DNA from: a virus
Direction: 5' to 3' (one strand)
DNA length: 64,000 nucleotides
IMG/VR virus record: IMGVR_UViG_3300019757_000164
Location: 32,001-96,000 of that record
Shown here: positions 2,230 to 34,379 of the stretch, piece by piece
Position numbering within the stretch: the stretch's first letter is position 1
Layout: the number at the start of each line of letters is the position of its first letter
Notes under the pieces: generated by a model
What the model saw: only the letters and a program-made list of their open reading frames with translations
Database searches by the model: none
What the model was told of the DNA's origin: nothing
Program-made: the position numbers and the translations under genes

Positions 2230-2307
2230 TAGTATTTCCAATAAGTCAAGTGCATAGTGTCCATATTGCCCAATTATGCATACATGATGCTCAACCGTTG
2301 ATTATTC
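2230..2307. repeat. palindromic recombination-like site 1 (core 2256-2284, spacer TGCCCAA)
   Basis: TAGTATTTCCAA-N14-AGTGTCCATAT-TGCCCAA-TTATGCATACA-N13-TTGATTATTC; overlaps the stop of ORF 2291..2710. Confidence 0.85.
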
Positions 2308-2722
2308 GTTTTAAATTATCAATCTCTTTTTCAGACTCATCTATCATTTTTATCAATTCATCGCCACTATAAATGTAGGTCGAAGTGTAGTCATCTGTAT
2401 CACAAATATTTACCATAAACCAATTTGGGAATTTTGGATTTTTATCCCATAGATGCACTGAACCAAGGTGTCTAAAATTTGAGTTTAAAAAATTCATCAT
2501 GTTTTCTTTGGAGTCAAAATAACCAATATTATATTCGTCTCCGTCATATGACACATCTTGCCATTTATATTTTTCTTGGTTGATTAAAAGATCATCTCTG
2601 CACGTAGCTAAATACTCGCTATCCCACTCAGTTCCGTCATTAGCCACATACTTGGTTATTTCTTGCTCGACTGGAACCATCTTCTTTATTGTGATTGTTC
2701 TTGTTTTCATATTTCCCTCCTT

Positions 2723-3709
2723 TTAAAATATCTCTCTAATATCCTGCATTTTACTATTTTCCTTCATTTGTAAATAGAATTTTCTAGTTGTTGATATATC
2801 AGAGTGTCCTAATATCTTAGAAGCCATTTCTAATTCAACACCTGCATCCATGAGTCTCTCTACCAATAACTTGCGAAAGCAATGTGGAATTATTTCATTA
2901 AAACCAGTCTCTTCTCTTGCATCATTTATTAGCCTTCTGATATATGCTACACTTCTAAAGTCTCCAGAAGCCTTATATCTATCGGTTGTAAATAAATATT
3001 CGCTATTTCCTCTTCTTTCTCCTGACTCCAAGTAGTCATCTATTGCTTTTTCAACATCTTTGAATAGTGTGACTATTCTTTGCTTAGAGTCACCACGACC
3101 TTTCCCCAAAACTTTTATCAAACCCTGATCTTTATACTCTAGATAATTCTTAATTTTGAATGTAGACACTTCGTTAATCCTCAAACCTTCATAAAAAATC
3201 AACATAGCAATGGCTTTGTTTTGCTTTGGCGTGCCTCTGTCTGAGTTTTGAATTGCATCGATGACCGCTTTCCCCTCTTCTTGTGAGTAATACACTTTAT
3301 GCTTTTGTTCAAATGGATAGTCTACATTTCCACTAATTGGGTTCGTATCGATATGTCCATATTTAACTAAATATTTCATAAATGAGCCAATATTAGCAAC
3401 ATATTTTCTTAATGAAGCATTCTTATATCCATTAGGTGCTCCATCATGACCCGGTGAACTTAACCAATCAACATATTGCTGTGCAACTAGACCTTTCATT
3501 GATCTTATATTCGACACTTTCATCATTTTAATTCTATTTTTAGTCATATACCAGTTGAAAAATCTATTTATAGACTTGTTTTCTTCTTTAATAGTCGTGA
3601 TTTTACATCTTTTCTTTACTTGGTTCATTTCATAGTCTAGCATTAATTCTGCTAATTGATCACTAACTCCATCAAACTTTAATAATTCCTTCAATTCTTG
3701 CTTTTTCAT
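2723..3709 (-). CDS. tyrosine recombinase/integrase (XerC/D-like)
   Basis: Catalytic residues present: GLRINE (R), GKG (K), HCFRK (HxxR), LGHSDISTT (H), FY (Y); N-terminal core-binding-like region; 328 aa. Confidence 0.93.
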   Translation of the reverse strand: MKKQELKELLKFDGVSDQLAELMLDYEMNQVKKRCKITTIKEENKSINRFFNWYMTKNRIKMMKVSNIRSMKGLVAQQYVDWLSSPGHDGAPNGYKNASLRKYVANIGSFMKYLVKYGHIDTNPISGNVDYPFEQKHKVYYSQEEGKAVIDAIQNSDRGTPKQNKAIAMLIFYEGLRINEVSTFKIKNYLEYKDQGLIKVLGKGRGDSKQRIVTLFKDVEKAIDDYLESGERRGNSEYLFTTDRYKASGDFRSVAYIRRLINDAREETGFNEIIPHCFRKLLVERLMDAGVELEMASKILGHSDISTTRKFYLQMKENSKMQDIREIF

Positions 3710-3742
3710 TGCTGTATCTCCTTTCGTATCTCTTATTAAGTT

Positions 3743-3771
3743 AATTATAACAAAAAGAAAAGAGCATTACA
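3743..3771 (-). promoter_or_regulatory. sigmaA-type promoter of the recombinase
   Basis: Minus strand TTGTAA-N17-TATAAT with TG extension, preceded by the AATAAAAAAACTTT upstream motif. Confidence 0.6.
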
Positions 3772-4463
3772 ACCCTTTTCTCAAAGTTTTTTTATTTATT
3801 TTCCCTATTTCTATTTTCCATATTCATTGCCCATCCAAACAGTATCATTGCCGGAATAAGTAGTGGGTTTATGATCCACAATAAAACCAATGAAATAGCA
3901 TACACTATAAATACCAAAGTTTCTCTTCTCATATTTATTCCTCCTTTGTAATATCTATCATTCTTTCTTCGTTGTTTAAATCAAATAATTCATTAACATA
4001 GAATTCAGACTCAAAATAATCATATCCATATCCTTCTACATCGGCAATCATTGCTCTTGCCCTAGTCTTATTTATAGCTTTTACTACCCACTGTTTATTG
4101 CTAATTAAACATTCTACGAGATAAACTTTATTCCTCATATAGCACCCTATTCCTCCAATCTGTTTAATCCATATGAATTTATAACTTTGCTACAACTTTC
4201 AAACTTTTCGATTATATTCGTGAGTTCATGCCTCAAATGATTTAGTAACTGTGATTCATTCTCATAACTATCGCATTCTGAATCCCACAAGAAAATATTA
4301 CTGCCAAAAATATGCAATCCTATGTACTGTACTGCTGTGCTATCGGTTAAATAGAAGCAGATTTCATCAGTTATTTCCCATAATTCATAATTCAATTGAT
4401 CTACAATATTTTGAATTTCCATTTTAAATCCTCCTTTTACTTTTATATATTTTCAATATCCAA

Positions 4464-4625
4464 TTACTTTCTGTACAGTTCAGATTCCCACTCTGCACCA
4501 CATTCATAACAGACATACGTGTCTCCAAATGTGAAATTAACAGTTTCGCAAAATGGACAAGTTCCATCTAATTCGGCTATTTTTCGCTCTTTACTTGCTT
4601 GTTGTGGTGTCTTTAAAATTTTCAT
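4464..4625 (-). CDS. small zinc-ribbon protein (53 aa)
   Basis: MKILKTPQQ...CPFC...CYECGAEW..., strong AGGAGG RBS; below the ORF-track cut-off. Confidence 0.7.
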   Translation of the reverse strand: MKILKTPQQASKERKIAELDGTCPFCETVNFTFGDTYVCYECGAEWESELYRK

Positions 4626-4644
4626 TTTACCTCCTTTTACTTTT

Positions 4645-4725
4645 ATATATTCTCAAAATTTCAACCTTATCTAGTTCATAATAACCCAATATGCATACAA
4701 TACGGTGAAAGTGTTTGAATTAAAC
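4645..4725. repeat. palindromic recombination-like site 2 (core 4671-4699, spacer TAACCCA)
   Basis: ATATATTCTCAA-N14-CTAGTTCATAA-TAACCCA-ATATGCATACA-N14-TTTGAATTAAAC. Confidence 0.75.
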
Positions 4726-5116
4726 AATATGTATTTTGTATCCTAGTTCTTTCTCTATTTCTATTTTTGTCATCTTTCTTGGTATATCCTTTGCATCAAC
4801 ATATTCTATAAAGCTTGAATACCTTATATCTAGAATGTCTATGACACAGTCCACATGAACTCCATTTTCTAGCATTGCAAACGTTCTATTCATCTGTGGA
4901 TTGCACCAATAATATAAAACCTTTACCCATCTAGAACTTGTATCACCTATTCTTCCTTGTTCAAGTCTGAAGTTTTTACCACCATTTTTTGGCGTCAACT
5001 TCTTTCCTTCTTTTAATGCTTTTATGATTTCATCGTGTGTCACATACGTCTTTAATTGTTCCATAATTCCTCCTTTGTATATTTATACATCCTATTTTAC
5101 CCTACTTTTTACTATT

Positions 5117-5197
5117 CTCTATTTCCAATGTATACAACTCATTGTGTGTATAATTGTATGTTATACATACATGACACTCAAACACGCATGGGTTCGT
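5117..5197. repeat. palindromic recombination-like site 3 (core 5143-5171, spacer TTGTATG)
   Basis: CTCTATTTCCAA-N14-TGTGTGTATAA-TTGTATG-TTATACATACA. Confidence 0.88.
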
Positions 5198-5746
5198 TAA
5201 TCCAATTTTCTCATCTTGTGTCTACTGATATAATTTTTCCAAGACTTGTACGTCATTTCTCCATAATATACGTAAGGAAATGTATTTCCATCATTAGCCA
5301 AAACTTCTTGTATTGTATCCTTCTTCTTGTATTCACATACTCTCTTATCAAATGCTTTTTCGTCTGACACCTGCCAAGAGATCATACTCATTTCTTCGTC
5401 AATTGAGTCTGAGTCCCACACTAAACACTCATCTACAAATGTAATAACTTTACTTCTCCATGGCTCACTTTCGCAAACATAGACTTCATCTTTATTATAT
5501 TTCATAAAACCTCCTTCTTAAAATAACTCTTCGTTTAATGATAAAACCTCGTTTGGCGATAGTAAAACGTCTCCATCTTCCTCATATGAGTCTAGCCACC
5601 GATACTTTCCGTCCGACATTTTAACTAATCTTAACGGATATCCCATACAATCATATTGAATTTTATTAGTTCTTTCAACTACTGTTGGGTCTTGTTTTTT
5701 CATCTTAAACAGATTAAAAATATTCATTTTACCTCCTTTTGTTAAT

Positions 5747-5800
5747 TAGTGTTTTCAATATATAATTCAATCCTATGCATAAATGACGATATAGCGTCTA
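5747..5800. repeat. internally deleted site 4 (spacer TTCAATC)
   Basis: Outer arm TAGTGTTTTCAA joined directly to TATATAA-TTCAATC-CTATGCATAAA; the N14 linker is missing. Confidence 0.65.
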
Positions 5801-6484
5801 TTTTTCTTTAACTCTCCAATATATACAAATGCAATTATCTACCGTAGTATCTCTAGTTTCGTATTCATATTCACCATCTTCGTTTTTAAACGGGGAGTAG
5901 TATCCATTGATTAATATATCATGCCACTTAGACATCTTTTCGTCACTTGATATACATTCATGGAATTCATCTATTGTATCACCATAATATATTCCATAAT
6001 CTCCACTTGTCATTCCAATTTCTACTGAATATTTGTACATATCCTTAACAGTATTTACTAATATTCTTTTTAGATCGTGGCTATAATTGAATCTTTTAGA
6101 GTTGTATTCAATACTTCTTCCAATATTTCCATCGTCATGTCTTTCGCTTGCACATATCCAATCAACCAGCATTTCGGTTACATCAACTAACCCCATACCT
6201 TTAATGCCGTTCTTGTGATATTCTGGATGATGTCTGTTTTCTAAGTAGTGATGCTTAAGTGCAATATTCATTTCTTTTAAATATCCTTTATATTCTTCAC
6301 TACCATATGTACAGTCTTTGAGCTTTGGTGTAAACTCATCAAATGCTTCTTTTTCTGGTGAATATAATTTGCTTTGATCATGTGTTGCGAACCTTTTACT
6401 TAATTCTTTTATTATTTTACTTCCTTTTTCTATAACGTTTTTAATGTGTTCTATTGTATCTTTTGAGCTCTCGTAATTATCCAT
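5798..6484 (-). CDS. DUF5662-like HD-type phage protein
   Basis: HDQSK...HHYLENRHHPEYH...EMLVDW motif pattern. Confidence 0.75.
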   Translation of the reverse strand: MDNYESSKDTIEHIKNVIEKGSKIIKELSKRFATHDQSKLYSPEKEAFDEFTPKLKDCTYGSEEYKGYLKEMNIALKHHYLENRHHPEYHKNGIKGMGLVDVTEMLVDWICASERHDDGNIGRSIEYNSKRFNYSHDLKRILVNTVKDMYKYSVEIGMTSGDYGIYYGDTIDEFHECISSDEKMSKWHDILINGYYSPFKNEDGEYEYETRDTTVDNCICIYWRVKEK

Positions 6485-7325
6485 TTATTCCTCCTTAATA
6501 TAGCTTTCTTCTCATCATTGATAACTTAATTTTATCATAGAAATTCTCAGTTGTAAATGTCATCTTTAAAAATACCTTTTGATAATTCATCAACTTTACC
6601 CCAAAATAATCTTCTACAAGTGCAACGGGGTTATCTTTGTAGTAATCAATTGGTTTGTATTCTTTTAACTTATTTAACATATCAAACCAAGACTCCTTAG
6701 TGTCTAAAACATAATCTTGATCTACATATTTATCATCAATTTTAATTAACTGATAATTTGCATATTTATTTTGAGATTTCAGAAAGCTAATAACTCGTCT
6801 ACCCTCTCCACCAGCCAAAACCCGTTTAAGATATATTTCGTGCTTTACTGATAATTGTATTGCTACATATAGTTTCATATATCACTCCTTAATCTAAATA
6901 TTTTATATCAAATTTAATCATATCTATTTTTTCGCCACAACCCATCTCCTCAAACTCTGGGTATTTTCTGGAAATAAACATACTCCTATTACAATCACAA
7001 GAGTGGTTATTCTCAAAAAATGCAAACCTCGCTGACTCTTCGGGGTATTCATAGCCAAAATCATACTCAATGGAGTAGACCTCACTATTATATTTAAAAT
7101 CAATAAAAGCAACGGTTCTTTTGTGCTTTAAAACCCCTTCCACCATATCTCTCATTAGTCCATACTTTTCATATTTCTTCAAAGATGCAGAAAAATGTTT
7201 TATTTCACACTCTGTATCAAAATAGTAATAATGGTCTTTGCCGTGTAGAGGGTTTCCTTCATTGAATGCTCCACCCCATATATGTAACATATATTCCTTC
7301 TTCATTTTACCTCCTTTTTACTATT

Positions 7326-7397
7326 GTGTATTACCAACATTTTAACTCTACTCTGTTTATAATTCAGTATTATACATTAATAGCGATCAAACGGCTA
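7326..7397. repeat. palindromic recombination-like site 5 (core 7352-7380, spacer TTCAGTA)
   Basis: GTGTATTACCAA-N14-TCTGTTTATAA-TTCAGTA-TTATACATTAA; stop of ORF 7395..8360 lies 15 nt beyond the core. Confidence 0.82.
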
Positions 7398-8360
7398 TTC
7401 TTCGTCAAACTCATCGTATCTACACTTTCTATAGTTGGCTAATTTTATATTTATATAACTACCATCAACCCAATCTTGCTGATCATTGTATATAGAAAAC
7501 CACGGCTGGTCTTGTATGTGCATTCCATCGAATAGTTTTCCTTGACAAATATCTGAACACATCATATTCAACCCTTTACCCTTAATAAAAGTTTTTAACT
7601 CATCTATTACATATTGATCAAGCCAATATATTGTAAAAGAAGTGTAATCATGGTTTGCCACTAAGTGCATTTTAGAATAGTCTAAATTATATTCTTTATG
7701 ATACTCAAACATTTCTCCGTTAATCCAGTAGCTTCCATTCACCACAATATGTACATCGTTTTCATCGAATGTTCTAATTATATCACTCAACATTTCTTCG
7801 CTATTTAAAAACCAATGCCATCTATCGTCATTTACGTATTCATCATACCACTCCCAATATCTATCATCATTATATCTATTTTCATAATCATATAACTTGC
7901 TATCACAAGTGCCTATCTTTAACCTGTCAGAGTGTTTCCAGTTTCTTTGTTTGTATTTGATCTTTTGACTGCCAAAATATCTCTTACCTTTTGGATTGGT
8001 TTTAGGAGTACATAGTGAGCAACTACAGAAGTTCTTTCCTTTATTTAAAGACTGTAGGGGTTTGTCATGTAAGTGCATATATCCATGTTTTCTTTTATAG
8101 ATGGCTTTAGACCAATTCTTCTTTCTTCTCTTGGCTCTAGTCATATCTTTTGAATAATCAACAACTTCATATCTGTCTCTATAGTTATCAAACCCGCTCA
8201 ATAGATAGTCCCACTCATTGTATTCTAAAGCCATTTCATAATAAGCTTCTTCTCCTCCATTATCAGGAACAATCAAACCAGTACCAAAATCAAATGGCTC
8301 ATTTTGTAGTTCTCTGTATATCTCTATTTCTTTTCTAGTGCATCCTTCATATATATACAA
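7395..8360 (-). CDS. hypothetical phage protein (321 aa), sole gene between sites 5 and 6
   Basis: Long ORF with a CSCSLC motif; no family recognised. Confidence 0.7.
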   Translation of the reverse strand: MYIYEGCTRKEIEIYRELQNEPFDFGTGLIVPDNGGEEAYYEMALEYNEWDYLLSGFDNYRDRYEVVDYSKDMTRAKRRKKNWSKAIYKRKHGYMHLHDKPLQSLNKGKNFCSCSLCTPKTNPKGKRYFGSQKIKYKQRNWKHSDRLKIGTCDSKLYDYENRYNDDRYWEWYDEYVNDDRWHWFLNSEEMLSDIIRTFDENDVHIVVNGSYWINGEMFEYHKEYNLDYSKMHLVANHDYTSFTIYWLDQYVIDELKTFIKGKGLNMMCSDICQGKLFDGMHIQDQPWFSIYNDQQDWVDGSYINIKLANYRKCRYDEFDEE

Positions 8361-8390
8361 AATTTCACCTCTTTTCTTGTTTTTACTTTA

Positions 8391-8462
8391 TACTGTTTCC
8401 AACGCTTATACGTCATTGTGCGCATAATCACCTATTACACACACATTAGCTTAAAACGGCTA
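8391..8462. repeat. palindromic recombination-like site 6 (core 8417-8445, spacer TCACCTA)
   Basis: TACTGTTTCCAA-N14-TGTGCGCATAA-TCACCTA-TTACACACACA; the left arm matches the E. coli dif XerC arm GGTGCGCATAA at 10/11. Confidence 0.88.
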
Positions 8463-10879
8463 TTTCTCAACATTGTCGTACCAACCTCCTATTATTAAAA
8501 AAAATTTAAGAAGGCTCAATCTTATATAATATATTGGCTTTAGATCGTATTTATATGTGCTAATAACCATCTTTGATCCTGAGTGAGTATTCGTTGTTTT
8601 TTGTGACACCATGCTTTCAATTGGCAATAGCATTTTAGAAAAGCATATGCCTAAATTTTTCTCATTATCACTATACTTTTGTATAAAGACTCCTTTTTTT
8701 ATTTTAATCACGTTGTACCTCCTCAATCTCATCCGCTTCCATATACCAATAGTAAGGATTATCAAATTCACACTCCCCACTTAGATCATTTTCACAGTAC
8801 TCACCATTTCGATCATTTTTAATTTCTGCTACTTCACAAATATCTGAATATCTAAACATTTCAGTTTCTTCGTAAATGTCATCGTCTTCGTATTTCCTAC
8901 ACTCTTGGCACTTTTTATATTTTGAATACTCTTCATCATATGGTTTGTTCTTTTCTGCTATGTATGACTTGGCACTTTCCTCATCTTTCACAAATCCAAT
9001 CAACGTAGATCTAGTGTCATACATATATCCATCTTCTTCATAAATTAAAAATACTTTCATTATACCTCCTTTATAATCTAAATAATTTCTTGACCAACTT
9101 CTGAGCCCTATTTAATCTCTTCTCTGGCAGATTCATTGTTGTAGTCTTCAATCCTATTCCATCTTAAACAATTCTCCATTCTTCCACCATATGATGCATA
9201 GGTAAACACTAACATACATGGAAACTCGTCGTCATCTGGTCTTATTCTTATTTTACCAAAGTAATCTTTTGGATGTGGCAACGCAAGCTCTTCGTAAATC
9301 TCATCAACGTCATAAGGCTCTATACAATCGGTCTCAAAATAAGTATGCCAAGACTCATAATCATCTCTAAAATAGCATTCTTCTGTTCCTACCATTCCAC
9401 TAACATTCATGTACCAATTGTCATGAACTAGCCTTTTTCCAAATAGTGATTTGACCAATATATCGTATTCATGTTGATTATTAGCTTGTGCCCATGATGT
9501 CATTGTCCATCTTTGGTCTAATTTCCAATTGTTTACATCGTATTTCATTTTAATCCTCCTTACCTATAGTTTAGGCTTGTTTTCTTCAGTAAGAATATCA
9601 CCGAATAATTCCTTCATTACTCTAACATTATAACATCTATCTTTTTCATTGTTTTTATGAAAATATGTTTGCTTCTTGATATTCTTATATGCTTTACTGG
9701 TATTACTTGCTTGATTTAATACTAACAATAATGGATTAAGCTCCTCCATTTCATCTTTGTAAGATCTTCTCTCTCTAAGAATTTCTTTTCTCATTATTGT
9801 AAGTTTGCACATCTGAGATGCGTTAAAGTCATATATCTCAGTTACATGATTTAGATCGAGTTCTTTCTTTCTAATAACTTCAATCTTATGTTTTAAGTAC
9901 GTGCATCTCTCTTGAATCTGATTTCTTTTATTTATCAGCTCATCCATTATCTCAACAGCATTTAATTTTTCCATCATAACCTCCTCAAGTTATATTTCCC
10001 TTATCTGTTAATTAAATTATACCATAACCAAAACCAATGTCAACACCTTTTTAAATAAAAATATAAAAATACCCAGAAAATCTGGGTTGGTCTAAGCATA
10101 TTATTAAATTAAATGTTTTTAGAGTTTATAGTACTATCGACTTTGGCTATACGACTCATCTAGCTAGTGGCTCAGTTTAATATTTTTATTTCCACGCTAG
10201 TGACAAGTCAACCTATTTGTTTCACCTTCTTATTTATATTTAACTAACCCAACCGTGTGTGGTGATCAGCCACGATTATTACAGACAAACTACATATTAT
10301 CTTCTAATTATTTTATTATTTACATCCTATGTTGGGTAGTTATTGATAAATTAAATGAACATATGTACAATCCAAGCCTCTAACCATAATACTGGTGGAA
10401 ATAAGACTTGATACATTGCCTTTTTGTCTTTTTCTTCTTCCGTTTTATCGTCGTCGTCAATTCTAAATCCTACACATGATTTCAAGAACAACCCAATACC
10501 TAATACATGAGCCATATTAATTTCTGGCATACCAATCGTAACCATAAACCAGATTGATTAATTGAATTCATACGATTCCTCCATTTCATTTTCAAATAAT
10601 TTTTCGTTAACTATACTTATGCCTCCATTCTTAAAATATACTTAAATTCTGACGGATGTTCATTTATTTTTTCTGACACTTCATGGATAAATTTGGATTC
10701 AGAATAGTCAATATTTTCACCTTGAACCCAGTTGTCATAATTTGATGTACAATCATTGCACATCTGCCAATCTTTTTCATCTACTTTATAAGTACAGTTG
10801 CTACAGTCAATGACTGATAAGATTTTTTCTTGTTTTTCTTTAATATTCATAAGCTCCTCCTTTTCTAATTTTAACTTTG

Positions 10880-10960
10880 TGCTATTACCAACGGTTTAAC
10901 GATAATGTGTGTATATTCTATTATTACACATACAATGCCATCAAACACTGTAACTTCCGT
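10880..10960. repeat. palindromic recombination-like site 7 (core 10906-10934, spacer TCTATTA)
   Basis: TGCTATTACCAA-N14-TGTGTGTATAT-TCTATTA-TTACACATACA. Confidence 0.87.
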
Positions 10961-11960
10961 CATAATGTCTACATTTATCTAACTCGAGCCCTATCTCAGA
11001 CCATGCTTTTTCTGAAGCTTTCATATCTTCATCATTCATATAGCCATGGTCAGTAAAATCCCAGTGTTTATCTTTTATAATTATTACCTGTCTGCCAAAA
11101 GCCCAATGGTCAACAAATTTTCCGCATTCTTCACATCTAGTGCATTGTTCTTCCAATCCATACTCATCATAGTAGCTTTTGTTATACATATTCTCATTCC
11201 CACAAATTGGACAAATCATATGCTCTCCCTTCTTCTTAGGTAAACATCAAAGCCTTCGAACTCTTTCTCTAAATCAACCCAATAGATTAAATCATAATTT
11301 ATAGTCATTGCATCTTCTAAATTGTTAGTGAAGCCAATTTCTCCATCCTTCTTGTACTTAAGGTACATCTTGTTTCCGTCACCTCTGCTATTCATTCGCT
11401 TAACTGCAACATACTCTATGCTTTTACCAAAGATGTAATTTTCGTATATATATGTTTTAATTAGATTGTCAATTATTTCAAAGCTAAAAGTACCATTTTT
11501 ATTTTCCGATATATTGCTGATTTCAGATATTTGTAAATCTAAATCTTCTCCGTTGATTTTGCACCACGCAGTAATATCTTCTATTAAATCTATTGATCTA
11601 TACTTTTTGTATTGTTTGTCATATATTGAATCGTGTATATCTAATGATATATCACCAATTGCGTAACAGCTCCATCCCATATTAATCCCTCCTTTATCTA
11701 GCCATGGTAAGTCATTTCAGCTACGGCATCTAGTAAATTTTCATATTCTTCAATAGTAATAGTAACAAATCTGTCACTACTGTAACCTAAAACCTTGCCA
11801 TTACCATTACTTAAATGAAGCTCTTCACTCCAGTAGTATAAATATTCAATAACCTCATCCATCGTTAGTGTATCGATTTTCAATGAATCTCTTTTTAAAA
11901 TAGAGCGTCTTATTTCTAGTGCTTTCTGTATATTCATGCTTAACTACTCCTTTTCCTTTC

Positions 11961-12041
11961 CACTATTTCCAACACTTACGGTACTATGTATGCATAATTG
12001 TAAATTATACACACAATAGACTCAAAGCGTTGATTACTTCT
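11961..12041. repeat. palindromic recombination-like site 8 (core 11987-12015, spacer TTGTAAA)
   Basis: CACTATTTCCAA-N14-TGTATGCATAA-TTGTAAA-TTATACACACA-N14-TTGATTAC. Confidence 0.9.
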
Positions 12042-12636: not shown

Positions 12637-12666
12637 ATATTCCTCCTTTTATTGATTTTGAGTTTA

Positions 12667-12744
12667 TAGTATTTCAAACCCTTACATCCCAATGTATGCA
12701 TATGACATAATTATGCATACATTTAGGTCAAATGGTGATTTTTA
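12667..12744. repeat. palindromic recombination-like site 9 (core 12693-12721, spacer GACATAA)
   Basis: TAGTATTTCAAA-N14-TGTATGCATAT-GACATAA-TTATGCATACA. Confidence 0.9.
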
Positions 12745-18412: not shown

Positions 18413-18420
18413 CTCCTTTG

Positions 18421-19945: not shown

Positions 19946-20025
19946 TTCAATTTTCAACGTTTATCCACACTGTATGTATAATAAAGTATTATACATTAAT
20001 GGTGCTTAAAGCGTTGCGATTACTT
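19946..20025. repeat. palindromic recombination-like site 15 (core 19971-19999, spacer TAAAGTA)
   Basis: TTCAATTTTCAA-N13-TGTATGTATAA-TAAAGTA-TTATACATTAA-N14-TTGCGATTAC. Confidence 0.87.
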
Positions 20026-23668: not shown

Positions 23669-24661
23669 TTATACATTATTATTTGACTTATTCTTATCAT
23701 AAACCTCAATTGATTTATTGATTCTATCTGGATTAGTATGTCTTTTGTCTAGAAACTGCTCAAATGTCAACTTTTTAAACATACTTGGTTGATTACAGTA
23801 AGCTGAGTAATCTTTAATAAAATGATCATACTCGCTTCCCCAACAATTCTTGTCTCTCATTATATATGGTAAAACTTTATTCTTTCTACACCATTCTACA
23901 CGATAAATCATGTCATGTAAAGTCATAAATTCAACATTATGGTAGACGTAAAATTTCATCTTCCAGTCCTTTGCGATATGTTTTTTCATCATTGGTAATT
24001 TCTTATTTAGCATCTTTTCATATTTAATATCATCAAATGCAAATATATACTCTCCCATGTAGTTCAACTTAGATAGCAACTCCATTTTACGGTCAGTAGC
24101 TAGTCTGAAGTCTAGTCCTTGATTAAAATCAACTCTAATATTCATTTCAATCAATTCTTCAAATACTTCTTCGCATTTATCATATGCAAATATGTTGTTA
24201 TCATAGAATTTAACTTTCTTGTGCTGAATAATATCTGACAATTCATTATACTTCTTAAGTTTACCTTCGAATTTAGGAACTTTACAGAACCAGCAATTTC
24301 TAATACAACCTCTGGTAATAAACCCATGACTTGTGTTTTCATCTTCGAAGTAAAATGGCTGTAGAGCTTCTATTTCTGGATCTAATTGTAACGCTGGATT
24401 AATTGATCCTATGCCACCAATAACCACATCCAAGCATCCTGTAATCTCAAATCTGGTTTGATTAATCTCAAATAAATTACTCACATACACTTTATCATAA
24501 GCACTAGCATCTATAGATTTAAATACTTTAGATGGAAATGCTGTCATGTTTAGATCAATCATTTTAACCTCGTGGTCTTCTTTGTTTAGATAATGCTTAT
24601 ATAGTTTTCTAATTGCTATATTAAATTTACTATCTACGTTTACTAATAATATTTTTTTCAT
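23669..24661 (-). CDS. radical SAM protein
   Basis: TRGCIRNCWFCKVP (CxxxCxxC), followed by DNN and FNQGLD motifs. Confidence 0.88.
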   Translation of the reverse strand: MKKILLVNVDSKFNIAIRKLYKHYLNKEDHEVKMIDLNMTAFPSKVFKSIDASAYDKVYVSNLFEINQTRFEITGCLDVVIGGIGSINPALQLDPEIEALQPFYFEDENTSHGFITRGCIRNCWFCKVPKFEGKLKKYNELSDIIQHKKVKFYDNNIFAYDKCEEVFEELIEMNIRVDFNQGLDFRLATDRKMELLSKLNYMGEYIFAFDDIKYEKMLNKKLPMMKKHIAKDWKMKFYVYHNVEFMTLHDMIYRVEWCRKNKVLPYIMRDKNCWGSEYDHFIKDYSAYCNQPSMFKKLTFEQFLDKRHTNPDRINKSIEVYDKNKSNNNV

Positions 24662-24685
24662 AATTACCTCCTTTACTATATAATA

Positions 24686-25870
24686 TCACTTATATGCACT
24701 ACTGTCAATACCTAATCTAACTTGAGTGTCTTTGCGTCTTTTGTCTCTTAAAAACTTATATTCTTCGAGATATTCAAAAAAGTCGTTCTCTGTATTTATT
24801 GTATCCGGTAGATCATACTCTATTAGTTGCTTGTTGTAATTTTTAAAAAATATCTTTTCGGCAATTAAGCGTATTTCTAATGCATCTACAAATTCTGAGT
24901 ACTGTCCCAAGTATATCGTTTTCCCGTCTTTTTTTATTCTAGATCTATACACCGTACTCCCCTTGCTTTTATGCACCGATACGCCTGGGTGCCCGCTAGA
25001 ATTATTAGATTGAATTCTTTTGTTCATTCCATTTTGCGAAGGGGTCACCTCTCTTAAATTACATCTCCTATTGTCGGATTTATCTCCATTAATGTGATCT
25101 ACATAATTACCTCCTTCTGTGGTCAATATTATTTTGTGCAATCTAAGATTCTTCACATTGCCATCAACTCTTCTAGTAGTGTGCAAATAACCATCGTCAC
25201 CCAAAACCCAAGTAAACCCTTTTGCTTTTACATAATCTACTTTATCTATGAAAAAAGTATCGGCGTTACTTGTGTATCCCATTATAAAATCACCTTTCTC
25301 CTCATACCTGTTACCTTTTATTTCAAATAGCCCTGTTCGGCACCCACACGTCTTTATATGACCATTTTTTATCTCTGTAAGCCTAATATCTTTTTCTTTC
25401 CCACAGTCACATATACATTTTGCTACTGTACACCTGTTGTCTATATCTTTATAAACGTCTAATATTTTAAGTGCGCCATACTTGTTACCTATTTCTTCGG
25501 ATGCCTTCTTTAAATATATATCTCTGTTTTTATCGGTTCTGATCTCATTTGTCCTATACTCATTATGCCAATCACTCAAGTTGCTCGATCTTTTTTTAAT
25601 ATTTTCTGGGTCTAGTCCTGCACACCTAAGTGAGCAATATTTAGTAAAACCAAGTGTTAAGTTTTTAAAGGTTTTATCTTTCCCACAAATTTTACACCTT
25701 CCGTCATCTTTGTGGTTGATAAATTCTATATAGTATTCTTTTTTCGAAATATATGGATGAGATTTTGTAATATGTAAGGACAAGCCTTGTATCTTAGTAA
25801 ATGATTTCCCGCATATTTTACATACATATGTTACTTTGTTATCCATTCTGGCTCCTTTCTTTTCTTCCAA
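24686..25870 (-). CDS. HNH homing endonuclease with C2H2 zinc finger and AP2-like C-terminal domain
   Basis: CKICGKSF..LSLHITKSH; VDHINGDKSDNRRCNL...QNGMN; SGHPGV...YRSRI...YLGQY. Confidence 0.9.
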   Translation of the reverse strand: MEEKKGARMDNKVTYVCKICGKSFTKIQGLSLHITKSHPYISKKEYYIEFINHKDDGRCKICGKDKTFKNLTLGFTKYCSLRCAGLDPENIKKRSSNLSDWHNEYRTNEIRTDKNRDIYLKKASEEIGNKYGALKILDVYKDIDNRCTVAKCICDCGKEKDIRLTEIKNGHIKTCGCRTGLFEIKGNRYEEKGDFIMGYTSNADTFFIDKVDYVKAKGFTWVLGDDGYLHTTRRVDGNVKNLRLHKIILTTEGGNYVDHINGDKSDNRRCNLREVTPSQNGMNKRIQSNNSSGHPGVSVHKSKGSTVYRSRIKKDGKTIYLGQYSEFVDALEIRLIAEKIFFKNYNKQLIEYDLPDTINTENDFFEYLEEYKFLRDKRRKDTQVRLGIDSSAYK

Positions 25871-26295
25871 TTAAATAAATCTCTCTTATCATTGTTGTAA
25901 TACCTTCTATACGCCTCCACTGCACATTCTGATTTATACTCATCTGGCATAGCCTGTGCGTGTTTTGTTAATCCTCTAGCTGGTAAATCTGGCAATTGCA
26001 TATCAATTAATAATTCTCCAGATTTATGTTGTTTGCCATATCTATATGTATACTCATCGTATAAAGCCATAGCATGATTATATAGCCATATCCAATTATC
26101 TAATGAATACCTAGCCCATACTGTACAAGGATGGTTCTTGTGAGCTAATCTATATGTAGCTAAATGCTCTTGATCTGTATAGTAATATGCGGACTGAAGT
26201 ATTTGTACTTCTTCCAGTAGCTGTTTGACCACGTGCTTATCTACATGATATTCAGCACATTTTTTAAAATCATAGTCTAAAATAAATATATTCAT
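25831..26295 (-). CDS. pyrimidine-dimer DNA glycosylase (T4 endonuclease V-like family)
   Basis: MNIFILD...CAEYHVDKHVVK...HKNHPCTVW...EYTYRYGKQHKS...QAMPDEYK...AYRRYY family signature. Confidence 0.85.
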   Translation of the reverse strand: MNIFILDYDFKKCAEYHVDKHVVKQLLEEVQILQSAYYYTDQEHLATYRLAHKNHPCTVWARYSLDNWIWLYNHAMALYDEYTYRYGKQHKSGELLIDMQLPDLPARGLTKHAQAMPDEYKSECAVEAYRRYYNNDKRDLFNWKKRKEPEWITK

Positions 26296-26660: not shown

Positions 26661-27449
26661 ACATTTATACGTCTATTCTATTTTCTACTTGTATTTAATT
26701 TGGTATACCAGATAAAATTGAATACATATGCATATTATTGAAATAACAGACAACATAAAAATAGATAGCACATATAGTTTTAAAAATGCATAGATTACTG
26801 CAAATGTAAAACACATACAACTTCCTATTAGAGAAAGCAGTTTAATTGTCCTAGGCGTGTTTTTATTAATCTTCATTTAATCCTCCTTTCCAAATAGCTT
26901 AAACAACACTTCTAATTCTACCTCTGAGCGTTCATATTCAGTTACTAGTGTATTAGATACCATTTCATCTAAGACTCCGTCATAGTCTACCATAGTAGAT
27001 TTTACTATTTTACCTTTATTTAATGTATATTTATAATACATTTAATTCACCTCCTTAGAAATATGATTTTGGTATAATTAATTCAGTTATATATCCTTCT
27101 TCTATTAATTCTTGTGTATCACCTATTCTAATCTTTCCAAACTTGATAATATTTGGTGATGGTTCGACTAATATAGTATTTTTATATAATCTGTTAATAC
27201 CATCATATGAAAACTCTTTAACAACTTTGAATACTTTTATATCATGCAATTTCACTACCTCCTGTTCAAGTATATGCTTATTTTATCATAGTTGAATATT
27301 CGTGTCAATAATTATTTTACTCTTTTTTAGTTGTTTTTCTATTAGTTTTATAGCTTTTTATGCTATTTATTGATTATTTTACTGTTTTTTATCTTTTTTC
27401 TATTATAAAGGAAGAAAGTTGATTTTTTAAATTATTTTCAGAAAAAGTG

Positions 27450-27478
27450 TTGACATTGATTTTGTATGTGATATACTT
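27450..27478 (+). promoter_or_regulatory. strong sigmaA-type early promoter
   Basis: TTGACA-N17-TATACT with TG extension; near-identical layouts at about 28046 and 30488. Confidence 0.75.
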
Positions 27479-28118
27479 GTATTAACAAATGGCAAACAGC
27501 CAAACAAGATATGACTTTAGGAGGTCTAATTATGACACCGTTTATGTATCAATGTTACATTTATAATGTTAGTGATGGAAGTGATAAGTGGTTAGCTGTA
27601 AATAAGGATACAATGAGAAAAGCTAACAGAGCTTATGAAGATTTAAAGAAAGTATTAAACCAAGGATATTATATTAGCAAACCAAAGAAAGTGGGAGTAT
27701 TATAATGAAAATGAATTCAACTTACAACCAAGAAGAACAATTATTAAACAGCTATAACTATGATATGGCTCAGCTTCATCAAGATAAGAACAAGCATGAG
27801 AATCGTATTAGCAATAGAAAACGTGATCAAGTTAAAAGAGAGCTGAGAAAGAATAAGAAAAATAGAAATAAATGGAATTAATCTATAACCAAATTTAATA
27901 TGAAGGGTGGTGATATAAATGTTGATCTTATGTATTCTAGGCATAATTACATTCCCTGTGATATATGCTAGATTATATGTAATAAGATTAGAGAAGAGAG
28001 CTTAGGCTCTTTTTAACTTTTTATAAAAAAGTTTACAAAAAAGTATTGACTTATTATTTCGTTGTGATATACTTATATTAAGTTAAAGGAAATTAATAAA
28101 TGATCTGAGGAGGTCAAT

Positions 28119-28942: not shown

Positions 28943-29512
28943 CTAACTCTTATTATCTTTATCTAATACTTCCTGTCTATGGTCAAATATAATTTGTGTA
29001 TCATTCAATAAGTTTTGTCCATTAAAAGCATAGTATGGATTGAATAATATATTTCTATCTCTACGATTAGAAGTCCTATATATAATATTATTATCCTCTA
29101 ATTCCTTTAGAGATTTGGTCAAACTATCCCTATTTAATCCGCTCAATTTCATAAGGTCTTTATTAGTTGGCGGCTTACCTTTATATAATACTACATTCTG
29201 GGACTTCGTAAGAAGACACAGAAAGGTGAATAGCAAGGATTTTGCTTTATAAGATAATTGAATTAACCCACTACTCTTGACTTGGTACAATTTTGTGAAT
29301 CGGTGTTTGCTATTCCACTTATTATTGTACATTTCTTTCTTGGCTTGTATTTGTTCTGTAGATAACAGATCATAATATTCTTCTGCTAACTTCATATAAG
29401 ATAACACATCATCTATATTAGAAACAAGTTCGCCTGTTTCAATATGGAAAATATGTTTGTTTTCTATGAAGTACTCATGAAACGTCTGTTTCGTTATCCT
29501 GTTCTCTGTCAT
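28943..29512 (-). CDS. RepL-like replication/HTH protein
   Basis: FTKLY...wHTH (LMKLSGLNRDSLTKSLKELEDNNII)...FNPYYAFNG, as in Firmicutes RepL-type proteins. Confidence 0.65.
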   Translation of the reverse strand: MTENRITKQTFHEYFIENKHIFHIETGELVSNIDDVLSYMKLAEEYYDLLSTEQIQAKKEMYNNKWNSKHRFTKLYQVKSSGLIQLSYKAKSLLFTFLCLLTKSQNVVLYKGKPPTNKDLMKLSGLNRDSLTKSLKELEDNNIIYRTSNRRDRNILFNPYYAFNGQNLLNDTQIIFDHRQEVLDKDNKS

Positions 29513-29693: not shown

Positions 29694-31366
29694 TTTATTT
29701 CCTTTCTTATATAATAGTAATTGACGTAACTATATCTAATAGACTATGTTTGGTTTTCATGTTAATATATTTAGTTGTCATTTATATGTTGTCCCCCTTT
29801 CTGATGTAGCGTAGACATAGTACGTTCAACTTAATAATACCATATTTAAATAGTTATTGTCAAACATTTTACCATTCTAAATATTTATAGCTAGTATAGA
29901 ATTTATTTATGGTTGTTTTAAATTAATTAGTAAATTATGCTTGACATTATTCTATAAATAGTATATCATTATAAATGTAAAGAGGAACTAACTATTAAAG
30001 GAGATTATTATGAAGAAAATTATTAATAAAGACGGAACTATCACATTAAATTTAACTTCAAAAGAATTGGAAATGTTGGATATTGGATTAGGTAGCATGA
30101 TTGGTGATTTAGCTTATACTATTGATAGTCCGTATACTGAAGATTGTATTGCAGAAGATGCGGAGAAAGAAATGAATGATTATATCAAATTAAGAGAACA
30201 ATTATAAGAAGTTAATAAAATACAAAAGGAGTAGATATGAATAAATGGTATGTACAAGTTACAGAAATCAAACATCAGAATAGATGGGCTAAATGTATTA
30301 TAGATTCAAATAATTCTATTGTACTAGAGATAGAATTTATGGATATAAAAATAGCAAATAGTATTGTTAATACTCACAATGATTCTGTAGAACTTTCTTA
30401 TGAGATAGGAATGAAGGAAGGCGTTAAAATAACAAAAGAAGTTTATGGAGATAAATAAATATTTTTTAAAAAAGTTTTGAAAAAGTGTTGACATTAATAT
30501 CATAGTATAGTATACTTAAGATAGTTAAAGGATAGCACTTAAAAAATGACTTGGAGGTCAATATGAAAAAGTATAATGATGAATATGGATTTATTAACAC
30601 AGAAGTATCAGAAGATTACAGAATTATTGCAAGTATGATGCTAGAAGAAGAATATAATACATACATGAGTAAATGGGGCTATTTACCTAAGAGATATAGA
30701 CTTGTAGTAGATAATGGCTGTGGATTAGCTTACACTGATAAATTTGAAACAATCGAAGAATTAAGAAAAGCAGTTAATAGGATTCAATTCATAACAGATG
30801 AAGAAAAAGAATTTTTGCTAAGATTAGAAGCCTAACAGCTTCTTTTTTTTTATTGTCTATTATACCTTTTGATTGATTCGTATGAGTAGTTATATAATAT
30901 CTGATGTATTAGTACTAGATATGATTATATGAGCTTACAGGGCTATATGATGGGATTAGGGTAAAGAACTTTATAAAAGTTTATATAAAAAAAGACTATT
31001 TAACGATAGTCTCTAATTGATCTAATATAGTTATAGTATCTGGATTGAATGAAGATATTATTTCTTTCTCATGACTAAAGTCTAGCAAAGTATCTATGTA
31101 TTCGTCTAATAATTCATAACCCATTGACTCGTACATCTCACCCTCTAACAATGAGTATCTATCCATATATAGTAATATAGATTGTGTTTATGATTATATT
31201 ATATATTAAGTTAGGTGTAATGTAAAGGATAAGTTTATATAATTTTATTTTAAATAAGTGTTGACATGGATATAATGAGTGTGATACAATAAGGTGATAG
31301 GTAAATTTGATAAACAGAAAGTGTTAAATGAAAAAAAAACAATGGATTTAAAGAAGGGAGTCACAC

Positions 31367-32038
31367 ATGAAGAGAGTACCACAGAACACAGATACATACA
31401 GAACTATAAATAAAGTATACAAGAGTCTAAAAGTAAATCAGGAAATTAAAAACTATAAAGAGTTTTGCAAGTTATTAGGTTTGAGTCCATCAAGTGGAAA
31501 TAGTAGAAATGGACATATAAGAACCTTTAACTATTTCTTTGAATATGAAAGAAAAGGACATGGCTATATAATAACAAAGATATATGACAAACCAATAGAG
31601 TACAATAGATACCATAAATCAGAGTATAAAAATGAAAGATATTGTTATGGTGATATAAATGATTACCTCGACACAAAAGGTATATATGCACTAATAAACA
31701 AAAGTGATATATACATAGGCAAAAGCTTTGATCTATATACTAGACTCTCTAATCACCTAGGAGAACACAGTAGTATACCTTATACTAGAGATATGCTTAT
31801 TAACGGCGGAATGTGTTATGTATTATTTGATTTGGGTATTGATGATGATTATCTGTTAAAAGAATGTGAGTCAATAGTAATAAACCATTATATAGATAAT
31901 ACCAATTTAAATGTAGTCAATAAAAGAAAGAACGTCAATAATAAGAAACAATCATTGAATAGATATATTACAGTATCCACAGAGGATTATGAGTTAGCTG
32001 TGAGTATACTGAAAGGTAATAATATAGAAGTACTGTAA
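31367..32038 (+). CDS. GIY-YIG nuclease-domain protein
   Basis: GIYALINKSDIYIGKS.DLYTRLSNH; N-terminal domain shared with ORF 32240. Confidence 0.75.
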   Translation: MKRVPQNTDTYRTINKVYKSLKVNQEIKNYKEFCKLLGLSPSSGNSRNGHIRTFNYFFEYERKGHGYIITKIYDKPIEYNRYHKSEYKNERYCYGDINDYLDTKGIYALINKSDIYIGKSFDLYTRLSNHLGEHSSIPYTRDMLINGGMCYVLFDLGIDDDYLLKECESIVINHYIDNTNLNVVNKRKNVNNKKQSLNRYITVSTEDYELAVSILKGNNIEVL

Positions 32039-32239
32039 ACTGCAAAGGAATAGAATGCAAATTTGTATTTAAATGAAAACTTGAACAATAAAAAGGCAAT
32101 AATATAAATATAGTTATATCATCTTTTATGTTCAACTTTTAGAAAGGAGTTATATAATAATTTTTAGGTACTTTAATTTGCTTATAAGTAATATTATATA
32201 TAAGCAAAAAAAGGTACGCGAAATTGAAAGGAGAATGAT

Positions 32240-33466
32240 ATGGATAATTATAAAAACTTAAAAGATACATACACGCGACTACAAGAGGGTCAAATATTCA
32301 AGAATTATAGGTCGCTGTGTGAATTCCTTAACCAGCCAGTAAAGACAGGTAGTAAGAATAAGAAGTACCAAATAGAAGAGTTTAATAGGTATTTTGAGTT
32401 TGACAAAGCTGGCAAAGGGCATTCGTTAATTATTACAACAGTATATGATGAACCATTAGCTAAGATTAGCAAAGGAATGTATAGTAGTTTAATATCAAAA
32501 CTTATAGTAGATACAATTGTTGAAGAATTGGATCAAGGTAATCATGAGTTATTGTTATCTAATAATCAACTATTTAATATGCTAAGTATGATTAATGAAA
32601 AATATATGTATTATAAGAATGAAGAAAATCACGACCAACTGATAGAGATACTAAATGTTAAGCAACAAGATATAGATCACTTTTATTCCGTTACTAGCTT
32701 TAGGTTTCAAAGTATGGTAGAATCAGCGTTAAATCATCTTAAGAATGAATTGTTTTTATTCTATACTAAACCTATGGTTATGATTATTAATATTGGTGGA
32801 AATAGAACACAAATGCAGGTAGCCAATGAAGATGAGATACAATATATAACCAAGATAAGAAAGAAAGTATTAGAAGAAATGGGATATAGTAATATTAATC
32901 ATTTCAGAAATAACAAGAAGGATAAGTTTATATATCATAGTAAAGTGCATGAAGAATTGAATGGTAATATAGAAGAGTTAAAGAATAAGAAATCATGTAA
33001 CTATAATGGTATAGAGTTTGCATATCAAGTGTATAAGATTATATTTATAGATAGTATTGAGAAGAAACAACAACAGATCAATCAATACTTAGAAGATAAC
33101 TCTATAGAAGTTAGACAAGCATTGAATGACCTGATTGTATCTAATACAAATAGTCAGTATGAGAAAAGATATGATAAGAGTAAACAAGAGATAGGTATAT
33201 ATAACAATACTGTGTTAGCACATCTACATGATTATGAAGATTGGAAAGCATTGCATACATACAATCAGCTTAAATTTAAAGCAGGTAACACGTACGTTAA
33301 TCATGGTAGTAGATTAATAGATTACACTATTAAAACTGATATGGAAGGATACAAAGAGGAGAAAGGTGTATTAGAAGATAAGGAACACAAAGAACAAACA
33401 GAATACCAACAGGAGATTAATAAGAAGATAGATGAAACATTAGGAGTATTGGATAAGTTATATTAG
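32240..33466 (+). CDS. hypothetical DNA-binding protein, possibly replication-related (408 aa)
   Basis: Long ORF with RBS; N-terminal KNYRSLCEFL...FEFDKAGKGHSLIITTVYDEP is paralogous to ORF 31367; function is inferred only. Confidence 0.55.
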   Translation: MDNYKNLKDTYTRLQEGQIFKNYRSLCEFLNQPVKTGSKNKKYQIEEFNRYFEFDKAGKGHSLIITTVYDEPLAKISKGMYSSLISKLIVDTIVEELDQGNHELLLSNNQLFNMLSMINEKYMYYKNEENHDQLIEILNVKQQDIDHFYSVTSFRFQSMVESALNHLKNELFLFYTKPMVMIINIGGNRTQMQVANEDEIQYITKIRKKVLEEMGYSNINHFRNNKKDKFIYHSKVHEELNGNIEELKNKKSCNYNGIEFAYQVYKIIFIDSIEKKQQQINQYLEDNSIEVRQALNDLIVSNTNSQYEKRYDKSKQEIGIYNNTVLAHLHDYEDWKALHTYNQLKFKAGNTYVNHGSRLIDYTIKTDMEGYKEEKGVLEDKEHKEQTEYQQEINKKIDETLGVLDKLY

Positions 33467-34298
33467 AGAGTATTAACTCTCTTTTCTTCTATCTATATGT
33501 AGTTATGAATACTATGTGTGATGGTTATGTATAATGTGTGTTAGTAAATAAGCAAAAGAAAAGACTATCTAATGACAGTCTATAGTTTTGGTATATAATC
33601 ACCCAATAGATGATATAATGATTTGCATGAATCGGTTAATTCATTGTTGTAATAACATTCCCATTCATTAGTATCTTTATTGTATATGATCTTAAATGAG
33701 TCTGTATTGAATGATATATCTTTCTTATTGATTAGTTTACCATTGATAGTAATATAGTTATTCATGATTAAACCTCCTTAAATTCCATATTCAATATATC
33801 CAACCTTGTCATACCATCCATACTCATTGGATGCCATAATCGTGTGTTATTATTGAGTACCCACAAGTTGTTATCTATAATTCTATATGATTTTCCATCT
33901 TGTTCACATAAGTACGTTGTTTCCTTCTTAAGCTTTGTTATATTCATCTTCTCCTCCTTATATAATAGTATTGATTTATATTAATAGTATATCATATGTA
34001 GATTAGATTGCAATAGGTAATTGTAAAGTATAATAGTATACATTATAGTGTATTGTATAGTGGTATAATTGTATAGGTGTATGATTGTATACAAAAATAC
34101 AATATTGTCCATGTCCTGAAAGTTCTCCATGTTCTGTAGCGAGTAAATTTATGAAATAATAATTATTCTGTAATATCTATAAAATTGTAATCATTACAAA
34201 TAATAGCCAATAATAAGCAAATATGACCATATTTAAGCCAATAATCAGTAATAATCAGCATAAATCATCAGATCATCAATGTAGCTAAAATAAGAATA

Positions 34299-34379
34299 TA
34301 GTAATTCCAATGGTTAAAGGTCAATGTATGCATAATTATATATTATACACACAATGTACTGTAACACTGATTACTACTA
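34299..34379. repeat. isolated near-consensus palindromic site 18 (core 34325-34353, spacer TTATATA)
   Basis: TAGTAATTCCAA-N14-TGTATGCATAA-TTATATA-TTATACACACA-N14-TGATTACTACTA in an ~0.8-kb non-coding region. Confidence 0.9.

Follow-up and report, generated by a model that had tools for sequence, protein, structure and literature searches.

In phage SPbeta, the protein MrpR (YopR) has a tyrosine-recombinase fold with three of the seven catalytic residues and is described as the master repressor, which binds a repeated element, SPBRE, in 10 promoter regions, with 10 ChAP-seq peaks reported (Kohm et al. 2023, PMC10516654). On Acinetobacter plasmids, published accounts of pdif describe many Xer-type sites on one replicon, with 11-bp arms that end in ATAA/TTAT and with variable centres (PMC13141974, PMC6449649). 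Here we describe an array of 29-bp palindromic sites in phage DNA that shares features with both systems, together with the Xer-like tyrosine recombinase gene that lies inside the array. The stretch that was analysed (hereafter the window) is 64,000 nucleotides long and corresponds to bases 32001-96000 of the 124,854-bp virus record IMGVR_UViG_3300019757_000164. The palindromes are read here, tentatively and at a strength short of probable, as predicted binding sites of the phage's Xer-like protein that would act as gene-control points.

Both SPbeta and the present phage have a YonO polymerase, and in both a recombinase-fold protein is paired with a dyad with a 7-bp centre that is scattered between early genes. 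As read in the SPBc2 record NC_001884, SPBRE is ATACA-N7-TGTAT with a 7-bp centre and spans 15-17 bp, whereas the present predicted site is a 29-bp dif-like palindrome; SPbeta has 10 peaks and the present record has 21 sites. In the pdif table of PMC13141974, an XerC arm ending in TATAA is followed by a 6-bp spacer and an XerD arm beginning with TTATG (for example, ATTTCGTATAA and TTATGTTAAAT around 6-bp spacers). Unlike pdif sites, which are described as having differing XerC and XerD arms, a 6-bp centre, alternating orientation and host XerC/D as their enzymes, the phage sites have symmetric arms and a 7-bp centre, all elements run in the same direction, and the recombinase is phage-encoded. 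Compared with chromosomal dif sites that are used by a single recombinase (XerA, XerH, XerS), the locus is similar in its palindromic site and in the best protein matches, which are XerA and XerH, but a chromosome has one dif while the record has 21 sites, and the protein falls below all curated Xer cut-offs. In the shufflon, Rci acts on several sfx sites with a 7-bp centre on one replicon, and their identical centres let segments invert freely; in the present phage, every centre differs.

The palindromic array

The initial annotation had listed 18 sites by their spacers. All 18 spacers are present, each between 11-bp arms that resemble TGTGTGCATAA and its complement, and the layout of 11 + 7 + 11 bp is kept in 18 of 18 of these sites and across all 21 sites of the record. 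When the window was searched with the pattern TGTRTRYATAW-N7-WTATRYAYACA, allowing up to 3 mismatches, 13 matches were found, compared to a mean of 0.22 in 100 dinucleotide-preserving shuffles of the window, none of which (0/100) reached 13. Over the whole record, with up to 2 mismatches, there were 14 pattern sites, and the reversed pattern, used as a control, gave 0. A half-site matrix scan of the record gave 21 sites, all within genome positions 6490-66325 and 0 in the late-gene half. Three of them lie outside the window (genome 6490, 25895 and 28330), and none of these three was in the matrix training set. The sites at 5755 (14.3 bits) and 18842 (11.5 bits) score within the range of the best scores of 20 shuffled genomes (10.0-18.6 bits) and are therefore treated as doubtful members; since the training set included both, their scores are if anything flattered. 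Hence, 16 of the 18 listed sites are strong matches and 2 are weak. Taken together, these results show that the palindrome array is real and far beyond chance.

The 18 sites are given below and are named by their plus-strand start in the window. The box mentioned in some lines is a GTTGGAAAT-like motif downstream of the palindrome, and L015 is a 9.7-kb metagenome contig from a mosaic relative.

2256..2284, minus strand: palindromic site with plus-strand spacer TGCCCAA, 23.2 bits; same-spacer ortholog in L015
4671..4699, minus strand: palindromic site, one arm poor in its outer half, 19.6 bits
5143..5171, minus strand: palindromic site, exact pattern match, 29.7 bits; same-spacer ortholog in L015
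5755..5783, minus strand: weak, doubtful site without the box, 14.3 bits, shuffle noise
7352..7380, minus strand: palindromic site, box at +13, 17.9 bits
8417..8445, minus strand: palindromic site, plus-strand left arm TGTGCGCATAA, 25.8 bits
10906..10934, minus strand: palindromic site, 25.2 bits
11987..12015, minus strand: palindromic site, exact pattern match, 31.1 bits
12693..12721, minus strand: palindromic site, exact pattern match, 30.0 bits
13169..13197, minus strand: palindromic site, 26.6 bits
15468..15496, minus strand: palindromic site, short form, ribosome-binding site 27 nt later, 19.7 bits
17208..17236, minus strand: palindromic site, 72 nt downstream of a TnpB gene, 25.7 bits
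18439..18467, minus strand: palindromic site directly upstream of the TnpB gene, without the downstream box, 24.7 bits
18842..18870, minus strand: weak, doubtful site, 11.5 bits, shuffle noise
19971..19999, minus strand: palindromic site, short form, 23.9 bits
22805..22833, minus strand: palindromic site, short form, 24.4 bits
26606..26634, minus strand: palindromic site, short form, 19.6 bits
34325..34353, minus strand: palindromic site, exact pattern match, heads a small minus-strand gene group, 31.1 bits

The consensus of the sites is TGTRTGYATAA-N7-TTATRCAYACA. All 11 arm positions are informative, the arm centres are 18 bp apart, the left and right arms are alike in composition, and the inner ATAA/TTAT is nearly invariant (at arm positions 8-11, A in 34, T in 35, A in 36 and A in 28 of 36 half-sites). 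Arm identity within a site (7.81/11) does not exceed that between different sites (7.85/11; permutation p 0.60), and mismatches between the arms are not biased towards one strand: 17 would pair as G-U if the gene-sense strand folded, 15 if the other did and 35 in neither case. Since the arms vary independently, the site appears to be double-stranded DNA for a symmetric dimer, with no sign of selection for an RNA or single-stranded hairpin, and we predict that the 29-bp palindromes are duplex-DNA binding sites for such a dimer. Eleven contiguous informative positions per arm with centres 18 bp apart are usual for Cre/loxP and Xer/dif cores and unusual for helix-turn-helix dimers. In its anatomy, the site thus suits a recombinase clamp better than a helix-turn-helix operator, as far as the sequence of the sites can tell, and the palindromic, symmetric arms fit use by a single recombinase. 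The earlier suggestion of tyrosine-recombinase-type core sites is supported by the 11-bp inverted arms, the 7-bp centre and the ATAA/TTAT inner ends, as in dif and pdif, and is further backed by the only recombinase gene of the record, which is Xer-like, lies within the array and keeps the 7 catalytic residues. For phage dif-like sites, the centre is described as often longer and more variable (PMC3025954).

A second suggestion, that the enzyme tolerates unlike spacers by acting on folded single strands like the integron integrase, was not supported. Integron-like folding of the sites was rejected because there is neither arm co-variation nor a G-U strand bias, and on the protein side the integron-integrase model TIGR02249 matched over the last 54 residues only (residues 257-310), with 34.6 bits versus a cut-off of 265. 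The locus does resemble an integron in that imperfect palindromes, placed between co-oriented genes, form an array next to a recombinase gene. It differs in the lack of arm co-variation and of a variable-length fold, and in intervals of 1-28 genes, each gene with its own ribosome-binding site, so that the one promoterless gene per cassette of integrons is not seen.

The placement of the sites is regular. Genes from position 1 to about 27000 of the window are encoded on the minus strand. Each of the 21 sites falls in a gap between minus-strand genes, in a region that crude gene calls put at 89% coding. Eighteen sites overlap no called open reading frame, and the other 3 overlap short or mis-started frames that were judged doubtful. 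In 17 of 21 cases, the palindrome starts 6-33 nt past the upstream stop codon, and in 19 of 21 the next start codon follows 27-78 nt after its end. Consecutive sites are separated by 1 to 28 genes, with a single gene in 5 of the 20 intervals. The palindrome is part of a conserved, one-directional element of about 85 nt, in which a TTTGAG box stands 5 nt before the palindrome, and a GTTGGAAAT box, 12-13 nt beyond the palindrome, is followed by the ribosome-binding site; all element flanks point one way. The GTTGGAAAT-like box (at least 7 of 9 positions) lies 12-13 nt past the palindrome in 16 of 21 sites, with TTT.A 6-11 nt upstream. In the short forms (15468, 19971, 22805 and 26606), the ribosome-binding site follows within 24-27 nt after the palindrome. 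At site 2256, the promoter-like sequence TTGACT-17-TATTAT with TG is found on the minus strand, 6 nt downstream of the palindrome. In about eight elements, among them 11987, 2256, 12693, 34325 and genome 25895 and 28330, the sequence immediately preceding the palindrome is AATCA....TTTGA. This flank resembles the IHF consensus, WATCAANNNNTTR, and may simply be the upstream stop codon plus the TTTGAG box.

The spacers had been singled out because they all differ. This holds for 21 of 21 spacers of the record, with a smallest pairwise distance of 2, but it is no signal in itself, because chance alone yields all-different spacers in 88-97% of trials: an identical pair arose in 12% of 5000 column shuffles that kept the observed per-position composition and in 2.8% of random 7-mer sets. 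The reported preference at the spacer ends was recovered; in gene orientation, T is at position 1 in 15 of 21 and A at position 7 in 17 of 21. In addition, A is favoured at position 2 (13/21), but the mirror T at position 6 is not (4/21).

The Xer-like recombinase and predicted gene control

An 876-aa protein encoded at 46328-48958 (plus strand) shares 47-51% identity with YonO from SPbeta and related phages, which points to a phage of SPbeta type. In SPbeta, YonO is described as a single-chain RNA polymerase by which the late genes are read as one operon (PMC5467207). Replication genes, a terminase, a Clp-type protease and tail genes are likewise encoded in the record; no terminal or att-like repeats were found at the record ends. 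A six-frame search of the whole record gave one tyrosine recombinase domain (PF00589), 0 serine recombinases and 0 Cro/C1-type helix-turn-helix domains. Among 48 other YonO-bearing virus records, 36 have tyrosine-recombinase-like genes. The recombinase gene is inside the array, behind a sigma-70-type promoter:

2723..3709, minus strand: gene of the Xer-like tyrosine recombinase, 328 aa, candidate site binder (Pfam PF00589, 3.6e-19)
3744..3772, minus strand: sigma-70-type promoter-like site TTGTAA-17-TATAAT with TG, before the recombinase gene, member of the second repeat family (D6) described below, no palindrome

The XerA, XerC and XerD models match the protein at 3e-28 to 1.8e-23, but it stays below the curated cut-offs (XerA, 99.1 bits versus 220; XerC, 98.4 versus 335; XerD, 83.3 versus 330). 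By sequence, it is thus Xer-like and does not appear to be an equivalog of the curated XerA, XerC, XerD, XerS or XerH families. Its best match in the PDB is XerA (5hxy; 4.9e-14 by sequence and 1.6e-11 by fold), with the catalytic residues aligned to the known boxes, and the predicted structure (mean pLDDT 83.5) matches the folds of XerA, IntI4, Tn1549 Int, XerH, lambda Int and Cre. Among 5.8 billion proteins, only six relatives were found at E ≤1e-10; the recombinases P0002 and P0003 are 66% and 63% identical. Across the 7 aligned sequences (down to 26% identity with the first sequence), no change is seen at R177, E180, K209, H276, R279, H302 or Y312, and the enzyme therefore looks catalytically competent.

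We propose that the Xer-family protein encoded at 2723-3709 would bind each palindrome as a symmetric dimer, and that the bound protein would control the gene groups behind each site as an operator-bound repressor, a roadblock or a promoter-proximal regulator. As the protein would read the arms, variation in the central 7 bp would be tolerated. Differences between spacers would also keep an enzyme that looks catalytically intact from deleting the DNA between sites. The initial annotation had named a dimeric repressor operator as the case that would speak against its recombination reading, and this very case has a direct precedent in the phage group, MrpR at SPBRE (PMC10516654). In NC_001884, with hexamers assigned by eye, SPBRE lies between the -35 and -10 (yonP and yorE), just upstream of the -35 (aimR) or directly before the ribosome-binding site (yopV, yopM and yonX). 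Since the phage elements spread over the same promoter and ribosome-binding-site positions, a regulatory role is ranked first. A control system of the MrpR/SPBRE kind, made of a still-intact Xer-like enzyme and dif-like sites, is thus the best supported of the readings considered, possible rather than probable. The link between recombinase and sites consists of resemblance and proximity; we infer the identity of the binder, the transcription starts, the effect on transcription and any recombination.

Several results weigh against recombinase-bound control sites. The full set of 7 catalytic residues is retained in 7 of 7 relatives, compared to 3 of the 7 residues in MrpR, and an intact catalytic set points to a real recombination job. 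Homology to YopR (MrpR) is not detectable (BLASTP E 0.57), and the MrpR entry 8A0A is neither among the 15 PDB sequence matches (E ≤1) nor among the fold matches listed. No palindrome accompanies the region's strongest promoters of sigma-70 type, the one before the recombinase gene among them, and therefore the sites cannot be the only switch. There is no consistent -35/-10 register around the sites, as three competing registers each fit some of them, and a consensus promoter scan gave 128 promoter-like sites versus 120.9 in shuffles. No similar array was seen in two scanned YonO phages with closer recombinase homologues (G041 and G028), by a method that barely recovers the window's own motif. 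Finally, the arms are the same in L015, at 2 of 2 sites, though its recombinase is only 38% identical; either the specificity survived or another protein binds, which weakens the link between protein and site.

The array appears to be lineage-specific in the collections that were searched. Among the 48 other YonO-bearing records, one had two AT-only matches and 0 had an array. In viral contigs, the exact site pattern occurred in 2 unrelated records, each of which had a single site and lacked a recombinase match. No phage record matched 2000-22000 by megablast, the recombinase found no match in viral contigs and one archaeal match, 23% identical, in genome contigs, and alignment A2 gave no match in metagenome contigs.

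Alternative explanations for the sites

A different explanation, which develops the earlier idea that unique spacers stop the array from deleting itself and act as addresses for exchange with co-infecting relatives, is that the palindromes are working recombination sites. The Xer-like enzyme would cross over only between same-spacer sites of co-infecting or replicated genomes, which would give 21 fixed exchange points for early modules and block deletion within a genome. We regard this as unlikely, with evidence on both sides. The seven catalytic residues are invariant in the seven aligned sequences and the sites have a dif-like architecture. For pdif plasmids, crossovers are described between identical or near-identical spacers, and this limitation to matching spacers corresponds to the address idea (PMC13141974). 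The two sites of L015 are orthologous to 5143 and 2256 with identical spacers, and the gene on one side has been replaced. Identity between L015 and the window is distributed as follows:

Site 5143, upstream gene through spacer: 341/347
Site 5143, right arm to start codon: 70/89
Site 5143, past the start codon: no identity
Site 2256, first 40 bases, through spacer: 40/40
Site 2256, next 68 bases: 63/68
Site 2256, downstream coding region: 1943/1956

At 5143, identity drops from the right arm onward; at 2256, five changes follow the identical stretch, and the homology starts 22 nt before the palindrome, at the stop codon of the upstream gene. In 2 of 2 sites, the change starts at the promoter-proximal arm. 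This pattern is compatible with exchange at the centre and equally with patchy conversion among repeated elements. Because both outer flanks of 2256 are 99-100% identical, the changed patch there is no simple crossover, and L015 is a single relative. Other junctions between L015 and the window fall at an overlap at a ribosome-binding site (6874/5516), at gene ends and at the stop codon 22 nt before the palindrome. Also at odds with exchange sites are the 1 to 28 genes between sites and the conserved asymmetric flanks and fixed placement before genes, which recombination does not need; the uniqueness of the spacers carries no statistical weight.

Among the 24 of 145 loose contig ends listed for metagenome assemblies, those that recur across runs (4727, 9070 and 10071) are all outside the palindrome cores. 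Contigs of four metagenome DNA runs over 2100-22000 are fragmentary, with joints at 10069>10216, 10344>10856 and 14220>14396 and a fourth at 13761>17739, whose shorter side has only 21 letters. A loose end at 12017 was rejected as a recombinant, as it is a contig of the 34325 locus placed on the look-alike site 11987. Mat metagenomes carry a population variant, C>G at 2261, that brings the weak arm of site 2256 nearer to the consensus and is also present in L015; two further variants, at 10901-10902, are just beside site 10906. In L015, the last 114 nt of the recombinase gene (4808-4921) are repeated with 80% identity at 5688-5801, after an inserted open reading frame of 249 aa. The second copy resembles the C-terminus of the family member P0005, and this looks like an insertion that duplicated or replaced the gene end.

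An equally cautious view must be taken of the possibility that the palindromes are operators or activator sites of another dimeric protein, or a promoter class read with the phage's RpoD-like sigma, the Xer-like gene being merely an integrase or dimer resolvase; this too is an improbable reading. The candidate binders would be a MarR-like protein, an unrecognised small phage protein or a host factor. The placement and conserved flanks look regulatory. With 360.1 bits versus a cut-off of 354, the sigma factor (279 aa; encoded outside the window on the minus strand, genome 6846-7685) clears the threshold of the RpoD C-terminal model, and a MarR-type winged helix protein is encoded at 28943-29512 (26.4 bits versus 24.6). 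In addition, L015 combines unchanged arms with a recombinase of only 38% identity, and no family match was obtained for most of the small proteins encoded in the region. Against another binder stand the 11 informative positions per arm and the 18-bp distance between arm centres, which are atypical of helix-turn-helix dimers, the inner ATAA/TTAT ends, which match Xer sites, and the lack of any palindrome near the MarR-like gene and of any Cro/C1-type helix-turn-helix domain in six frames. A reading of the elements as SigF/SigG-type promoters was dropped because the phage sigma is RpoD-like. The sigma gene lies within a long replication operon that is headed by the site at genome 25895.

A broader version of the exchange reading, which we consider more doubtful, is a phage-run Xer/dif-module system, in which an active single recombinase and about 20 privately addressed sites would allow frame-safe swaps of early modules. 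The bound protein would perhaps also be a regulator, so that the system would be a living intermediate toward the catalytically dead MrpR.

That the arms are inverted pairs of host DnaA boxes, which would bind or titrate the host initiator, is very improbable. The DnaA-box motif is TTATNCACA, and the inner nine arm bases, read outward from the spacer as TTATRCAYA, fit this 9-mer exactly when Y is C. However, about half of the arms have T where the box needs C, two outer bases (CA) are conserved beyond the 9-mer, and the strict 7-bp dyad spacing suggests a dimer while DnaA reads single boxes. Least credible of all are RNA or single-stranded DNA hairpins (attC-like, REP/IS200-type, RNase III sites or terminators): each site can be folded on paper and a TnpB (IS605 OrfB) gene lies between two sites, but the arms do not co-vary (p 0.60), G-U and A-C mismatches are balanced (17 versus 15, with 35 others), the stems are not followed by a T-run, an Rfam search of the window gave no match, and REP or IS200/IS605 hairpin repeats were rejected as only TnpB/OrfB and no Y1 transposase (TnpA/RAYT) was named in the family scans.

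Neighbouring elements and implications for the phage group

A second repeat family, unrelated to the palindromes, is made up of sigma-70-type promoters that are near consensus and follow an A/T-rich stretch, several of which overlap a terminator-like stem; an example is TTGACA-16-TATAAT at 10043-10016. The palindrome is absent from the members that were examined. The members are:

3743-3800, minus strand: second repeat family
10003-10069, minus strand: second repeat family
13742-13786, minus strand: second repeat family
16896-16953, minus strand: second repeat family
21303-21360, minus strand: second repeat family
36490-36559, minus strand: second repeat family
39903-39968, minus strand: second repeat family
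27423-27485, plus strand: second repeat family
28019-28081, plus strand: second repeat family
30462-30498, plus strand: second repeat family
31235-31271, plus strand: second repeat family

In T4-type phages, PeSL cassettes are described as pairing a strong sigma-70 promoter with a terminator stem-loop (Arbiol et al. 2010, PMC2839356). Like the present elements, they are conserved regulatory repeats between small early genes in a variable region and, by that description, may serve as homology patches for module shuffling. The second repeat family answers to this description (for example, at 3743-3800 and 10003-10069); the palindromes do not.

The TnpB/OrfB_IS605 gene (with helix-turn-helix, OrfB and Cas12f1-like TNB domains) is at 17309-18412 on the minus strand, between two palindromic sites, and its ribosome-binding site is about 20 nt after the upstream site 18439. 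A gene for a proteasome/HslV-like peptidase (12034-12636, minus strand; Pfam Proteasome, 8.3e-09) lies alone between two of the top-scoring sites, 12693 and 11987; a search for this gene in viral contigs gave none. Three adjacent minus-strand genes encode a radical-SAM-like protein (23669-24661), an HNH endonuclease with an N-terminal C2H2 zinc finger (24686-25870) and a pyrimidine-dimer-glycosylase-like DNA-binding protein (25831-26295). A beta-CASP/RNase J-like metallo-hydrolase gene (49555-51012, plus strand) follows the YonO-type polymerase gene at the head of the late-gene block.

Under either the control or the exchange reading, the locus offers a compact pair of one 328-aa protein and one 29-bp site. 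If the sites are exchange points, this would be the first phage-encoded, spacer-addressed module-exchange system, and it would provide a mechanism by which large temperate phages become mosaic at gene boundaries. If they are control sites of the Xer-like protein, the favoured though tentative reading, this protein would be a second, independent tyrosine-recombinase-derived regulator in the same phage group as MrpR; the co-option of tyrosine recombinases to act as transcription factors is described as possibly more widespread than thought (Kohm et al. 2023, PMC10516654). With a site that is still dif-like and an enzyme that still looks active, the pair could then show a recombinase and its site turning into a repressor and its operator.

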